DNA of 64,000 bases, from contig CAVXAH010000001.1 of NCBI GenBank assembly GCA_963759775.1, forward strand, positions 336,682 through 400,681, written 5' to 3'. The notes under the pieces are model-generated. The model saw nothing but the letters and a program-made list of their open reading frames with translations. It was not told the DNA's origin and ran no database searches. A program made the position numbers and the translations under genes. Positions within the stretch are counted from its first letter, which is position 1; each line of letters starts with the position of its first letter. Shown piece by piece: positions 1,616 through 7,443 of the stretch. The DNA comes from an uncultured bacterium. Its GTDB lineage: Bacteria; Patescibacteriota; Minisyncoccia; Phycocordibacterales; Phycocordibacteraceae.

Positions 1616-2083
1616 ATGCATACAGTCATTTCTCCGGTAAACAGTGCGGGGCGCGCGAAACTTGGTATTCGTGCGGGTGATACTGTGCGCGTCATACAAA
1701 ACATCGTTGAGCTCAAAAAGGGCAAGGGCACCGATAAGAAAGAGAAGACGGTGAAAAACGTCCGCAAACAAAATTTTGAGGGTCTCGTACTTGCGGTGAA
1801 ACACGGCACAGAGCCAGGAGCTATGTTTACGGTCCGCACCACCCTCTCGGGCGTTGGCGTGGAGAAAATCTTCCCCCTCTACTCCCCCATGATAGACGCG
1901 ATTGAAATCGTACGTCGCTCAAAAGTTCGCCGCGCAAAGCTTTACTTCATCCGTGAGAAGGCGGCGAAGGAGGTGAAGCGCCAGCTCCGTAATACTCGTT
2001 CCGTAGCGACCGTTCTTAACACAGACGTTACCGTTGAAGCTCCAGCGGAGGAAAAGAAAGAAGAGGTCCCCGCAGCTGCATAA
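1616..2083 (+). CDS. rplS: Ribosomal protein L19 with Lys/Glu-rich C-terminal extension
   Basis: GDTVRV...GVGVEKIFPLYSP...VRRSKVRRAKLYFIR pattern characteristic of L19. Confidence 0.9.
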   Translation: MHTVISPVNSAGRAKLGIRAGDTVRVIQNIVELKKGKGTDKKEKTVKNVRKQNFEGLVLAVKHGTEPGAMFTVRTTLSGVGVEKIFPLYSPMIDAIEIVRRSKVRRAKLYFIREKAAKEVKRQLRNTRSVATVLNTDVTVEAPAEEKKEEVPAAA

Positions 2084-2180
2084 GTTTCAATACGAACCCG
2101 CCGACCGCTTTGCCTGTCACACTGCAGAAGTGTGGTCAGGCTTTGCGGTCGGCGGGTTTTCGTTTATAGTTCCCGAACCT

Positions 2181-2265
2181 GCCCAGGTGGCGAAATTGGT
2201 AGACGTACTACCTTGAGGTGGTAGCGCCTGTAATGGGCATGGAGGTTCGAGTCCTCTCCTGGGCA
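2181..2265 (+). tRNA. tRNA-Leu(GAG), type II with long variable arm, no encoded CCA
   Basis: Acceptor GCCCAGG/CCTGGGC, anticodon stem CTACC/GGTAG with loop TTGAGGT, T-arm GGAGG-TTCGAGT-CCTCT. Confidence 0.9.
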
Positions 2266-2280
2266 CAACGAAAATAAAGG

Positions 2281-2299
2281 CACCCGAAAGGGTGTTTTT
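2281..2299 (+). terminator. Short intrinsic terminator after tRNA-Leu
   Basis: CACCC-GAAA-GGGTG hairpin followed by TTTTT. Confidence 0.5.
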
Positions 2300-2304
2300 A
2301 CGTT

Positions 2305-2455
2305 GTGCCCAGAGCGAAGCAACTGCTTGCTTCGCGTGAGAGGACTCGAAAGCGGTCGAGCGTATGAGCGCGAGCTTGTATTCAAGCGAAGCCGAATGCG
2401 AGACCCGTACCGTCCCCGTAGGGGAAGAGATGCGAAGCGATCCTCTCCTGGGCAC
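2305..2455 (+). ncRNA. Candidate structured RNA of unknown class, ending in a copy of the tRNA-Leu 3' end
   Basis: GTGCCCAG (2305-2312) pairs with CTGGGCAC (2448-2455); GAGAGGA (2338-2344) pairs with TCCTCTC (2441-2447); internal hairpins GCGAAGCAA/TTGCTTCGC, CTCGA/TCGAG, GCTTG/CAAGC; followed by a terminator. Confidence 0.35.
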
Positions 2456-2456
2456 C

Positions 2457-2485
2457 AAAAAACCGGCTTACGCCGGTTTTTGTTT
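2457..2485. terminator. Bidirectional intrinsic terminator (RNA candidate on +, rpsT on -)
   Basis: A-run, ACCGGC-TTAC-GCCGGT hairpin, T-run. Confidence 0.6.
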
Positions 2486-2492
2486 TGGTGCC

Positions 2493-2759
2493 TTACGCTT
2501 TCAACTTAGCGACTGCTTTTGCGAGGCGTGCCTTCTTGCGGGCCGCCGTATTCTTTTTTATGAGACCGTTCTTCGCAGCCTTGTCTATCGCCTGGTACGC
2601 AGCAGAAAGAAGTTTCTCTGCTTCTTTTGGCTGCTTTGCAACAAGTGTCTTCATAAACGCCTTCGTTGCATCCTTAAGCGCGTCGGAGCGGCGTGCATTG
2701 AAAACGCGCTTCCGGAGGGACGCGCGGTAGGCTTTCTTTGCTGAACTGGTGATTGCCAT
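2493..2759 (-). CDS. rpsT: Ribosomal protein S20
   Basis: 88 aa, basic, MAITSSAKKAYRASLRKRVFNARR... typical S20 N-terminus. Confidence 0.85.
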   Translation of the reverse strand: MAITSSAKKAYRASLRKRVFNARRSDALKDATKAFMKTLVAKQPKEAEKLLSAAYQAIDKAAKNGLIKKNTAARKKARLAKAVAKLKA

Positions 2760-2834
2760 GTCGCCGCATCCTAAAGTATTTGTCCTGCATACGCAAGTTT
2801 TCCCTCAACCTCCTCCACGCTGTATGATGAGTTT

Positions 2835-3389
2835 ATGATTCGCTCCGTTTCCGGAAAGGTGCTTCACAAAGGGCTCGGAAGCATCGTTGTTGATGTGGCT
2901 GGTTTTGGGATTGAGGTGCGCACGCCAACGCCTGATGCATTTAGCGAAGGCAAAACTGCAGCTCTTTCTACCCATCTCGCGGTAAAGCAAGACGGGCTTG
3001 AGCTCTATGGTTTTTCTGACCCCGCCGACAGGGACTTTTTTGAACTTACACTTACCGTATCTGGTGTGGGACCAAAGACCGCGCTTGCACTTTTGAAGCG
3101 TTCTCCGCGCGAAGGGCTTGAGAGCGCTATCGCGAGACGTGACATTGTCTACCTCACCCGCGTGGCGGGACTCGGCAAGAAATCTGCGGAAAAAATAGCA
3201 GTGGAGCTTTCAGAAAAGCTTGCGGCAAAAAAAGACGCGGGTGACGGGGGTGATGCTGAAGTATTTGATACGCTCGTCGCACTCGGCTATACCGAGCGCG
3301 AAGCGCGAGGTGCACTCTCGAGTATCCCCGAAGGGGTGTCTGGAAAAGAAGCTCGGCTTCGCGCCGCGCTATCGGGAAGTCGCTCATGA
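2835..3389 (+). CDS. ruvA: Holliday junction helicase subunit RuvA
   Basis: MIRSVSGKV...GFGIEV...LYGF...FELTLTVSGVGPKTALALL pattern; TATGAT box 6 nt upstream of ATG. Confidence 0.9.
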   Translation: MIRSVSGKVLHKGLGSIVVDVAGFGIEVRTPTPDAFSEGKTAALSTHLAVKQDGLELYGFSDPADRDFFELTLTVSGVGPKTALALLKRSPREGLESAIARRDIVYLTRVAGLGKKSAEKIAVELSEKLAAKKDAGDGGDAEVFDTLVALGYTEREARGALSSIPEGVSGKEARLRAALSGSRS

Positions 3390-4615
3390 TCCGCCGCTTG
3401 TACAGAACAATTCTCTCGCCCTATCACTTTGCCTGGGCACTTGGTTCTGCACTGTGGTACGGATTTCCTGCTAAAAAACTCACTGTCATCGGTGTTACGG
3501 GCACCAAAGGAAAATCTTCGGTAACCGAGATGCTGTACTCAGCGCTTACCCATGCTGGACACCCAACGGCAGTGGCGGGAACTATTCGTTTTGCGATAGG
3601 AAATGAATCGCGCCCGAATTTGTACAAGATGACTTTGCCCGGCCGCTTTTTTATTCAAAAATTCCTTGCGGAGGCGGTACAGAAAGGTGCAACACACGCG
3701 GTGATTGAGATTACTTCCGAGGCCGTGCTCCAGCACCGTCACCTCTTTCTCTTTTTGAATGCACTGGTGTTTACGAATCTTCAGAAAGAACACATTGAGT
3801 CACACGGCTCATTTGAAAAATACGCTAAGGCGAAACTTGCGATAGGCAAAGCGCTCGTGCGTTCACCAAAGCGGCCCCGTGCAGTTATTGCGAACGCCGA
3901 CAACCTCCACAGCATTCCTTTTCTTGCGCTTCCGGTAGAAGAGAAAATTCCGTTTTTGTATGGCGATGCCAAAGAAGTAGCGCTCGGGCCCGGTACTGCC
4001 TCATTTGCGTACGGGGATGTGCGCTTTTCGCTTCACCTGCCCGGCAGTTTCAGCGTTATGAACGCGCTTGCGGTTATTAAGACTGCACACTTTCTTGGCG
4101 TCTCGCTTGAAAAAATTCGTGACGCACTTGCTTCGCTCACACGTATTCCAGGGCGCACAGAACGCATTGAAGCCGGCCAAGATTTTGAGGTCGTTGTGGA
4201 CTACGCACACACCCCCGACTCTCTTGCCGCGCTCTACGCGGCATACCCCGTGCGGAAAATTTGCGTGCTTGGAAATACGGGGGGCGGACGCGATAAATGG
4301 AAGCGTCCTGAAATGGGTCGCATCGCAGATGAGCAGTGTGCAGAGGTGATTCTGACGAATGAAGATCCCTATGACGAGAACCCACGAAGTATTGTGGAAG
4401 AAATGGCGGCCGGCATGAAACGAAAGCCACAGATCATTATGGATAGGCGTGAAGCAATTTGCGCGGCGCTACGCGCCGCGCAAAAAGGAGATGCAGTGCT
4501 CATCACCGGCAAAGGAACCGACCCATTCATTATGGAAGCGCGTGGCAAGAAAACGCCGTGGAGCGATGCGCGCGTTGCACGAGAAGAGCTTGAGAAACTC
4601 GCTCGGGTAGCCTAA
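3386..4615 (+). CDS. Mur ligase family protein, MurE-like
   Basis: P-loop VIGVTGTKGKSS, DYAHTPDSL and NEDPYDENP motifs of Mur ligases; specific substrate not assignable by eye. Confidence 0.75.
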   Translation: MIRRLYRTILSPYHFAWALGSALWYGFPAKKLTVIGVTGTKGKSSVTEMLYSALTHAGHPTAVAGTIRFAIGNESRPNLYKMTLPGRFFIQKFLAEAVQKGATHAVIEITSEAVLQHRHLFLFLNALVFTNLQKEHIESHGSFEKYAKAKLAIGKALVRSPKRPRAVIANADNLHSIPFLALPVEEKIPFLYGDAKEVALGPGTASFAYGDVRFSLHLPGSFSVMNALAVIKTAHFLGVSLEKIRDALASLTRIPGRTERIEAGQDFEVVVDYAHTPDSLAALYAAYPVRKICVLGNTGGGRDKWKRPEMGRIADEQCAEVILTNEDPYDENPRSIVEEMAAGMKRKPQIIMDRREAICAALRAAQKGDAVLITGKGTDPFIMEARGKKTPWSDARVAREELEKLARVA

Positions 4616-6440: not shown

Positions 6441-6513
6441 GCGCCCGTAGCTCAGTCGGTAGAGCAGCTCCCTTTTAAGGAGATGGTCGTTGGTTCGATT
6501 CCTACCGGGCGCA
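6441..6513 (+). tRNA. tRNA-Lys(TTT), no encoded CCA
   Basis: Acceptor GCGCCCG/CGGGCGC, D-arm GCTCAGTCGGTAGAGC, anticodon loop CTTTTAA, T-loop GGTTCGATTCC. Confidence 0.9.
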
Positions 6514-6544
6514 CAAAAGTTGTATACTAAAGGTAATTAATTTA

Positions 6545-6757: not shown

Positions 6758-7443
6758 ACAGAGAGCGCAAAACGCTCAAGCGCCTCGGAAAGATCAGTGC
6801 TCGTTCGGCGAGTGTCTTGAAGAAGTTTGATGAGCGCTAAAGAGAGTGCTCGTGCTTCGCTTGGTTTGTAAGCGCGGCTTCCCTTTTCCATCAGATCACG
6901 CGCTTTCCAGTGGAGCAGGCCATGGAGCGCTTCGGGGGCTTCCCCCGCACGAAGTGCACGAACAATTTCTATCCAAAGTTTTTCGCTTGAGCGGGTTCCA
7001 AGTGCGTTTACAAGGCCAGCATTAAAACCGCGCACCTCTTCCCGCTCCCCTGTTTTATCAAACACGTATGCCATCTTGGCTTTTGCGGCAAGCTTCTTCG
7101 CTTTCGCTTGCGAAAGTTTTGGAGCTAGAATGACAATCACATTTTCAGACTCAACAAGCATAGAAAGCTTCTCTTCAAGTACAGTCGCGTCTGATCGGTC
7201 CTCCTCGTCACCCTCTTCGTCGGTTTTTTTTGACACGGCAAACGGGTCATCAATGAGGGTGAGGGTGCGTTTTGCAAAAAGACTCCCTGACGCAGACGCC
7301 TCTTCCAGTACGCTTTCAGTTATCTCCTCTTTCGCGAGGCGCACGTAGGCAAGGTTGGGCTCTTTTGTTTTTGCAGCCGCGACCCACGCAAACGCTTTCG
7401 CGCGCACTTTTTCTACATCGGAGCCGTAAAAGAGATAAATCAT
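6754..7443 (-). CDS. Possible DNA polymerase III delta subunit (HolA-like)
   Basis: 229 aa starting MIYLFYGSD (HolA-like N-terminus), helical C-terminus, located next to polA; weak assignment. Confidence 0.4.
   Translation of the reverse strand: MIYLFYGSDVEKVRAKAFAWVAAAKTKEPNLAYVRLAKEEITESVLEEASASGSLFAKRTLTLIDDPFAVSKKTDEEGDEEDRSDATVLEEKLSMLVESENVIVILAPKLSQAKAKKLAAKAKMAYVFDKTGEREEVRGFNAGLVNALGTRSSEKLWIEIVRALRAGEAPEALHGLLHWKARDLMEKGSRAYKPSEARALSLALIKLLQDTRRTSTDLSEALERFALSV

Follow-up and report, generated by a model that had tools for sequence, protein, structure and literature searches.

In Escherichia coli, the tRNA-Tyr gene tyrV is followed by three 178-bp repeats. Each repeat finishes with 19 nt copied from the tail of tRNA-Tyr, and an inverted 10-mer positioned about 100 nt upstream of the tail copy closes the annotated small RNA (sRNA) RttR, encoded from 7 nt after tyrV. 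PMC3318445, citing Bösl & Kersten 1991, describes rttR as an experimentally demonstrated RNA originating from the repeats of the tyrT operon, and this RNA has been said to act in processing of the tyrT transcript and, possibly, in the stringent response (bioRxiv 10.1101/2024.07.17.603846). A similar arrangement is present behind tRNA-Leu(GAG) in the 64,000-nt stretch of DNA analysed here, referred to throughout as the window, from a Kaiserbacteria bacterium of the Candidate Phyla Radiation (CPR). The element in question, designated the window unit, has 151 nt, is located 3′ to the tRNA-Leu gene and occupies positions 2305-2455 of the + strand. As in E. coli RtT/rttR (RF00391), it immediately follows a tRNA gene and shares its orientation, terminates with a direct copy of the tRNA 3′-terminus (15 nt, against 19 nt in E. 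coli) and has an inverted copy (21 nt, against 10 nt) that closes a GC-rich fold of ~110-150 nt with GCGAAGC-type mini-hairpins inside. In both, an Arg-rich open reading frame (ORF) overlaps the unit, the 'protamine-like' tpr in E. coli and ORF 2303-2509 in the window. There are, however, clear differences. The window unit is a single copy rather than a set of 178-bp tandem repeats, a terminator hairpin is positioned between the tRNA and the unit, and the inverted arm is longer (21 nt), contains a T-loop complement and is split by a hairpin. Related units are found behind several different tRNAs, with the arms re-matched each time. The two are also not homologous, as the RF00391 model scores about 135 bits (133-138) on E. 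coli but has no match in the window at E ≤ 10 and, conversely, R2, a model of the new family defined below, gives ≤ 4.3 bits at the E. coli RtT locus. The window unit has the design of RtT but belongs to a CPR family that is new and not homologous to it.

The initial annotation of this DNA, made from the sequence alone, had recognised that the last 15 nt of tRNA-Leu, TCCTCTCCTGGGCAC at 2252-2266, recur at 2441-2455. The recurrence is exact, there is no further exact copy in the window and relaxed matching adds only three hits, all with 3 mismatches. The proposed pairing of the second copy with GTGCCCAG (2305-2312) and GAGAGGA (2338-2344) is present at these coordinates, as are the perfect 9-bp hairpin formed by GCGAAGCAA and TTGCTTCGC (2314-2322/2327-2335) and the two terminators said to bracket the unit, a hairpin at 2281-2294 followed by T5 (T1) and a second hairpin at 2458-2481 (T2). 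What had been overlooked is that 2305-2312 and 2338-2350, taken together, reverse-complement the final 21 nt of tRNA-Leu without a mismatch, T loop included. This complementarity extends into the tRNA trailer, with 15/16 positions matched between 2259-2274 and 2297-2312, so that the tRNA end, T1 and the 5′ arm constitute one long palindrome. We designate the tail of tRNA-Leu itself as copy A, the inverted copy, split by the hairpin P2, as B and the direct copy as C (Table 1). A likeness of the 5′ end of the unit to the 5′ end of the tRNA, also reported initially, exists but is trivial, since the 5′ arm complements the acceptor 3′ strand.

Table 1. Features of the tRNA-Leu(GAG) locus and examples of related simple modules. 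Positions are those of the window unless a locus (L number) is named.
Feature	Position	Strand	Remarks
rplS (ribosomal protein L19), upstream neighbour	1616-2083	+	ORF; homologues carry PF01245
rplS terminator hairpin T0	2100-2165	+	Inverted repeat I2, 2100-2116/2137-2153, then T-run; orthologous in L094
tRNA-Leu(GAG), CCA not encoded (…GGGCA-CAA)	2181-2266	+	ARAGORN; Rfam RF00005, 50.3 bits
Copy A: last 21 nt of tRNA-Leu (T loop, T-stem 3′ strand, acceptor 3′ strand, discriminator + C)	2246-2266	+	
Trailer with terminator T1 (hairpin 2281-2294, T5 on +, T-rich tail on -), native to tRNA-Leu	2267-2304		Core CACCCGAAAGGGTGTTTTT identical in L094
Arm B1: reverse complement of acceptor 3′ strand + AC; pairs with 2448-2455 (P1a, 8 bp)	2305-2312	+	
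P2: 25-nt insert, perfect 9-bp hairpin with CTGC loop, at acceptor/T-stem junction of B	2313-2337	+	Inverted repeat I9
Arm B2: reverse complement of T-stem 3′ strand (2338-2344) + T-loop complement ACTCGAA, 1-nt overlap	2338-2350	+	Inverted repeat I3
P1b, 7 bp	2338-2344 with 2441-2447	+	
Interior: divergent, shortened family module	2351-2440	+	AGCGG..GAGCG-TATGA-GCGCGAGC; CCCC/GGGG hairpin; terminal GCGAAGC mini-hairpin before TCC
Copy C: direct 15-nt copy of tRNA tail, then CA, reading …GGGCA-CCA	2441-2455	+	
Terminator T2, bidirectional, common with rpsT (stem 2458-2481)	2451-2492		Palindrome extends into copy C (GGCACCAAAA/TTTTGGTGCC); inverted repeats I6, I8
rpsT (ribosomal protein S20), convergent neighbour	2493-2759	-	ORF; PF01649 on identical protein
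Simple modules in relatives, examples	L002 7791-7884; L004 7018-7111; L006 3347-3440; L023 3428-3521; L027 3252-3346, 6916-7010		

The unit begins 38 nt after tRNA-Leu, on the same strand, and all 36 of its arm positions are intact (B 21/21, C 15/15). B and C form a 15-bp helix with the sequence of the tRNA-Leu acceptor/T-stem stack that encloses the interior of ~90 nt, and the CA that follows copy C generates an encoded CCA end, which the tRNA-Leu gene itself lacks. By our arithmetic, about 2 pairs of exact 15-mer repeats are expected by chance in 64 kb, so such a repeat is not rare, but the expectation for recurrence of this specific 15-mer within 400 nt is about 4e-7 and, with the ordered inverted copy added, the probability of a chance origin is negligible. 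The predicted fold of the unit has -72.4 kcal/mol (z = -6.1), a value equalled by 0/200 shuffles, and the + strand is preferred (z = -6.1 versus -3.5 for the - strand). The interior alone is weakly structured (z = -1.75 on the + strand, -0.15 on the - strand), with most of the fold significance stemming from the arms and P2.

GCGAAGC, a sequence capable of folding into a very stable mini-hairpin, does occur three times on the + strand of the unit, as first counted, but the fuller count is four, with one on the - strand; the P2 arms are one + copy and the - copy. In the whole window there are 33 GCGAAGC sites (484, 3298, 5702, 32315 and 62004 among them) versus 17.5 ± 4.6 expected, a number reached in 1/100 shuffles, and GAGCGAAGCGA is present repeatedly at helix tips in the units of relatives. 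There is no supported ORF in the 174 nt between the tRNA-tail repeats. The overlapping Arg-rich ORF (2303-2509, +), with a predicted product of 68 aa and a TTG start, is probably a side effect of the GC-rich helices.

Related units were sought in 80 loci encoding relatives of RuvA (56-80% identity), all from metagenome-assembled genomes of Kaiserbacteria/Paceibacterota, by asking for every tRNA whether its own tail recurred downstream; the Kaiserbacteria loci examined total ~0.57 Mb. Elements of the family are located 40-80 nt behind tRNA genes, in the orientation of the tRNA. The layout of the window unit is found behind Arg-GCG (L018, L043, L066, L067, L057, L075, L032), Arg-CCG (L042, L027) and tRNA-Ser (L044), always with the same order of parts, namely a trailer hairpin, the reverse complement of the acceptor 3′ strand, the GC hairpin P2, the reverse complement of the T-stem 3′ strand and T loop, a conserved interior and a direct copy of the tail, that includes CCA where the tRNA gene encodes CCA. 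The tRNA-Ser case lacks P2. In each of these armed units the arms match the local tRNA; B is the reverse complement of A at 19-23/21-23 positions (20-23 in most units), whereas C has decayed in L075, L032 and L057 (6-11/15-16 positions), where B is near-perfect. Complete arms are exclusively Watson-Crick paired, with no G·U. The same is true of P2, with 121/121 Watson-Crick pairs over 14 units that have 12 different stems, and the position and loop type of P2 in the window are those of its type-2 relatives, the armed units having interiors of two subtypes. In a joint MAFFT alignment of type-1 and type-2 units, the P2 strands land in different registers.

Two covariance models were used. Five armed type-2 units that follow tRNA-Arg genes, the window not among them, were the basis of R2, in which pairs were annotated for the arm helices and P2 alone; R1 represents the simple, arm-less two-hairpin module (M1+M2) described below. 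R2 recovers 2305-2455 (+) at full length with 39.7 bits (E about 2.5e-8), the sole significant match on both strands of the 64 kb. A type-2 sequence profile, also with the window out of the seed, has its best window match at 2312-2394 (+), a weak one (E = 0.025), and R1 does not recognise the interior (4.6 bits at 2327-2390). By eye, the CTGC loop of P2 is common to the window unit and type-2 units; the window unit also has TCGAA-AG…GAGCG…GCGCGAG, with the short-M1-like motif GAGCG-TATGA-GCGCGAG as in L001, and a terminal GCGAAGC mini-hairpin before TCC that it shares with L065. The window unit is clearly a divergent armed member of the family by architecture, and weakly so by interior sequence. 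Two armed type-1 units (L021 ~610-726 and L065 ~25-141) follow a gene ending in …CCGGGGCACCA or …GGGGGCAC that is recognised by neither ARAGORN nor Rfam and may be a degraded or unusual tRNA-Arg(GCG).

The commonest form of the family has no arms. A tRNA ending in GCAC is followed by a palindromic terminator, GTGC and then a two-hairpin module of ~90 nt, at a fixed 38-43 nt from the tRNA. Compensatory changes are present at 25/32 predicted pairs of this simple module, and R1 identifies 34 modules in the Kaiserbacteria loci, all on the tRNA strand, of which 33 follow a tRNA in the same orientation (Arg-GCG 15, Lys 15, Arg-CCG 2 and Ser 1). In the 34-member alignment, 94.1% of cells pair, versus 69% in shuffles, and double changes are found at 30/32 pairs; the covariation score of 0.496, versus 0.143 in shuffles, is reached by 0/500 shuffles, and the paired fraction drops to about 35% in slid controls. 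One pair is G·U in 25/31 sequences and would read C·A on the opposite strand. The conserved junction (GSCGNAGCG…CGCGAGSC, GGGGTCGCG…YGTGACC) includes this G·U pair. Family interiors are structured as a single strand, are read in the tRNA direction and are under clear structural selection. Searches of Rfam 15, at the gathering threshold and at a permissive E ≤ 10, with the window, better-preserved relatives and L004 returned tRNAs and noise only, with no match to the family, and searches of the literature for tRNA-linked structured RNAs in Patescibacteria/CPR listed no description of such elements. The armed and simple tRNA-trailing units are a previously undescribed RNA family.

Modules are also found in tandem, some with a palindromic terminator of their own (L004 7018-7261, L001 3908-4117, L005 7186-7334 and, on the - strand, L043 from 6811-6880 onward), and each tandem module ends in …CCAC, resembling the …GCAC ends of tRNA genes. 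The tRNA-Lys of the window (6441-6514) has no simple module, whereas that of L002 (78% RuvA identity) has one. L006 (~2100-2600) and L011 (~2320-2810) contain tRNA-like sequences with the long hairpin CCGGAGGCGGGTCCGCCTCCGG, at least one of which is apparently missed by ARAGORN.

The gene order around the unit is uppS, an rluD-like gene, rplS, tRNA-Leu, the unit, rpsT (on the - strand), ruvA and a Mur ligase gene. In the 80 ruvA loci, the place upstream of rpsT is taken by tRNA-Ser(TGA), tRNA-Arg(GCG) or tRNA-Arg(CCG), never by tRNA-Leu, and the rplS-tRNA-Leu/rpsT junction of the window is unique and therefore a lineage-specific rearrangement. L094, with 84% L19 identity and the same uppS-rluD-rplS-tRNA-Leu synteny, has an identical tRNA-Leu tail and the same terminator core CACCCGAAAGGGTGTTTTT, followed by unrelated sequence and no unit. 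Copy A and T1 are therefore native to the tRNA gene and not element-borne, and the junction is directly after T1. The unit is likewise absent behind tRNA-Leu(GAG) in all other relatives sampled (L085, L092/93, L097-99). Absence from close relatives had been named at the outset as an observation that would count against the feature; this is what is found at tRNA-Leu, but identical sequence on both flanks is seen in none of the relatives and, with the family conserved at other tRNAs, the absence does not dismiss the feature. Four close relatives (P0002, P0004, P0007 and P0010) are not comparable at tRNA-Leu, with contigs that end at rplS or inside the tRNA among them. In several relatives, a small predicted membrane-protein ORF is present just after the unit, between two tRNA-Arg genes (L001 ~150-500, L066 ~2740-3080 and L067 ~3180-3520).

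The explanation that we favour, at a probability of about 0.45, a little below an even chance, is that the window unit may be an RtT-like tRNA-trailer RNA, in which the B:C helix would mimic the acceptor/T-stem stack of the neighbouring tRNA and so provide ends of the tRNA type that would allow trimming and confer stability. If E. coli RtT is taken as the model, transcription would proceed in the tRNA direction, either by read-through of a leaky T1 or from a start of its own. The tRNA-like minihelix, ending GGGCA-CCA, would supply tRNA-type ends that could be trimmed and protected by the enzymes of tRNA end maturation (RNase P, 3′ trimming, CCA addition), with release of a stable RNA of ~150 nt. 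Minihelix ends that resemble tRNA serve as processing and stability signals in the tRNA-like domain of transfer-messenger RNA, in viral tRNA-like structures and in mascRNA-type 3′ ends. As in these systems, the window unit has an acceptor/T-stem-like coaxial helix with a discriminator and CCA on a body that is not a tRNA, but it has the complement of a T loop in place of a T loop, the body is inserted at the T-loop position and the helix is copied from the neighbouring tRNA. The first of three readings offered in the initial annotation, a tRNA-derived structured sRNA, is in part sustained, as the arms copy the tRNA tail, the family is tRNA-linked and the interiors of relatives have covariation and the G·U pair; however, it is only the arms that derive from tRNA, the interior being an unrelated module.

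The arms could arise by DNA-level templated copying across the palindromic terminator, from A to B and then from B to C over the interior, a process that would keep them identical to whichever tRNA is upstream. Features of the arms point to such copying over simple RNA-helix covariation: what B reproduces is the T-loop variant of the adjacent tRNA (ACTCGAA here, AATCGAA behind tRNA-Arg) and the genomic trailer, not a CCA end; B follows A more faithfully than C does; and P2, with its 12 different stems, and complete arms are Watson-Crick throughout. Templated copying is, we infer, the simplest origin. A continuum of terminator palindromes that extend into tRNA ends was not supported, with matches of 4-5 nt equal to those of the control, so that the armed units form a distinct class. 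The loop motif YCTGCR is present both in post-tRNA terminator hairpins (L002, L005, L006, L027, L050, L054 and others) and in the P2 of type-2 units (window 2323-2326), suggesting that P2 is a captured copy of such a hairpin.

Several observations weigh against a processed trailer RNA. T1, with its hairpin and T5, separates the tRNA from the unit, so that co-transcription requires read-through, and no promoter-like site was found at the locus by a scan that does not cover CPR promoters. The interior, at 4.6 bits with R1, is barely more stable than shuffles and goes unrecognised, and this copy could therefore be decaying. Arms and P2 that are 100% Watson-Crick fit DNA-level palindromes as well as they fit RNA helices. 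The T-loop complement and the trailer copy within B are not needed by the B:C helix and, as C has decayed in several relatives in which B is perfect, the closing helix is not universally maintained. For a read-through transcript of 2181-2455, the energy model prefers pairing of B with the tRNA tail (-138.3 versus -121.5 kcal/mol for B:C). Pairing of the 5′ flank (TGGT in relatives, GT in the window) with the ACCA end is atypical for RNase P substrates.

Several of these points would be accounted for if the unit were a non-functional by-product, its arms and P2 being scars of DNA-level template switching at palindromic terminators (quasi-palindrome extension/correction). They would have formed once a rearrangement had placed rplS-tRNA-Leu-T1 next to a tRNA-trailer module, old and decaying, that lay upstream of rpsT, and the copy would not be under selection today. 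The lack of the unit behind tRNA-Leu in all sampled relatives and the junction that is unique among the 80 ruvA loci are as expected on this basis, as are an interior that is weakly structured and unrecognised by R1, arms and P2 without a single G·U, the copying into B of T loop and trailer beyond the need of the B:C helix and the decay of C in relatives. A scar does not, however, readily explain why the exact architecture, with P2 at the acceptor/T junction, is present behind three other tRNA species and with two interior subtypes, why 36/36 arm positions are intact in the window or why the fold prefers the + strand, and the family interiors are under clear structural selection. The negative outcome of the palindrome-extension test is a further argument against it. 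On balance we consider a by-product unlikely, although it is the alternative to be taken most seriously.

A further alternative is a cis-acting switch on read-through transcripts. B is antisense to the last 21 nt and trailer of the pre-tRNA and, if T1 were read through, could capture the tRNA tail; C would then either compete for B, freeing the tRNA, or complete the acceptor and T stems of the tRNA, so coupling read-through to tRNA maturation or quality control. Consistent with such a switch, B matches the trailer of the gene rather than a CCA end, the T-loop variant is unpaired in the B:C fold and could be a toehold, B tracks A more faithfully than C does, and the minimum free energy structure of 2181-2455, at the -138.3 kcal/mol given above, pairs B with A and C with the 5′ strands of the tRNA. 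The case is, however, purely thermodynamic. The tRNA would form first during co-transcriptional folding, a tRNA with its T loop buried in a helix is non-functional, and the prevalence of arm-less forms indicates that the module does not need arms. A switch seems improbable to us.

Also improbable, and slightly more so, is a miniature mobile or integrative element, or a relic attachment (att) site, in the 3′ end of tRNA-Leu, with the target duplicated through an integrase acting in trans or through a single-stranded fold-back substrate. The T-stem-to-3′-end block is the typical target of tRNA-targeting integrases. As in relic att sites and cis-mobilisable remnants, direct repeats that span T-stem to 3′ end flank a short insert, presence and absence among relatives are patchy, and copy C with T2 resembles an intact tRNA end plus terminator, as in the tRNA-Arg(CCG)-terminator-rpsT order of relatives. 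Gain and loss at tRNA tails does happen: in another lineage, two 98.5%-identical loci differ by a 235-nt structured insertion with a palindromic hairpin, between tRNA-Val(TAC) and tRNA-Phe (L084 3024-3258 versus L083 3024-3025). The 21-nt copy of the tRNA-Val tail in this insertion is not at its end, and its interior differs from that of the window unit.

The attL/attR relic proposed in the initial annotation is nevertheless not supported. The proximal repeat, copy A, is followed directly by T1, a native trailer in L094, and an integrative model in which A and T1 were element-borne, with C the displaced end, was rejected for this reason. There is no integrase or cargo between the repeats. The spacing from A to C is always 140-215 nt, and no copies beyond 215 nt, no distant tail copies and no larger islands were found in the 80 loci. 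Within a genome there are no near-identical copies (L042a and L042b are about 65% identical by our reading), viral-contig scans for copies of the unit returned chance matches only, and units at the same tRNA look orthologous across genomes. Relatives with a unit-less tRNA-Leu(GAG) do not provide a clean empty site, as their downstream flanks differ. An att model also leaves the inverted arm unexplained, does not predict that B tracks the tRNA better than C, and differs in the RNA-type covariation present in the interiors of relatives.

A more speculative reading, and a long shot at present, is that the arms are a self-retargeting address, by which CPR-specific small structured RNAs attach to the upstream tRNA through templated copying of its tail, with the antisense arm and the decoy C then sensing or controlling maturation of that pre-tRNA. 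Equally conjectural is the corollary that the T-loop complement is the toehold of a tRNA-specific regulator acting in cis or trans; if true, such a self-retargeting regulator would have no described counterpart. The remaining initial proposal, a degenerate tRNA or tRNA-like pseudogene, is very improbable, since despite an acceptor-like and T-stem-like helix ending in ACCA, 2267-2455 gives no hit with ARAGORN or, even at E ≤ 10, with the Rfam tRNA model, the 5′ arm reverse-complements the 3′ strand and does not copy the 5′ strand (GAGAGG versus TGGAGG in the tRNA), and AC and T-loop complements are present with no D or anticodon arm. To our knowledge, the defining motifs, partner genes or Rfam matches of hammerhead, twister and other ribozymes, of signal recognition particle, 6S and RNase P RNAs and of integron attC sites are not present, and the same holds for IS200/IS605 ends, omega RNA, IS110 bridge RNA, retron non-coding RNA, group I/II guide pairings and archaeal-type tRNA introns.

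CPR bacteria have tiny genomes with little non-coding DNA, and we know of almost no characterised small RNAs from them. The family described here is a multi-copy RNA family in these organisms, with covariation support from 34 modules in about 0.57 Mb, and is tethered to a tRNA in 33/34 cases. The weight of the finding rests mainly on this surrounding family, the window copy itself being divergent; were the window unit only a scar, it would mainly record a mutational process at palindromic terminators. The armed units of the family also offer a clear case from nature of repeats remaining matched to an adjacent functional gene. The presence of the same design in E. coli RtT and, independently, in a phylogenetically remote CPR family suggests that closure of a trailer RNA by a mimic of the tRNA end is a recurrent solution, with processing, stability and tRNA-linked regulation as candidate roles, and the new family provides a second system in which the RtT design can be studied.

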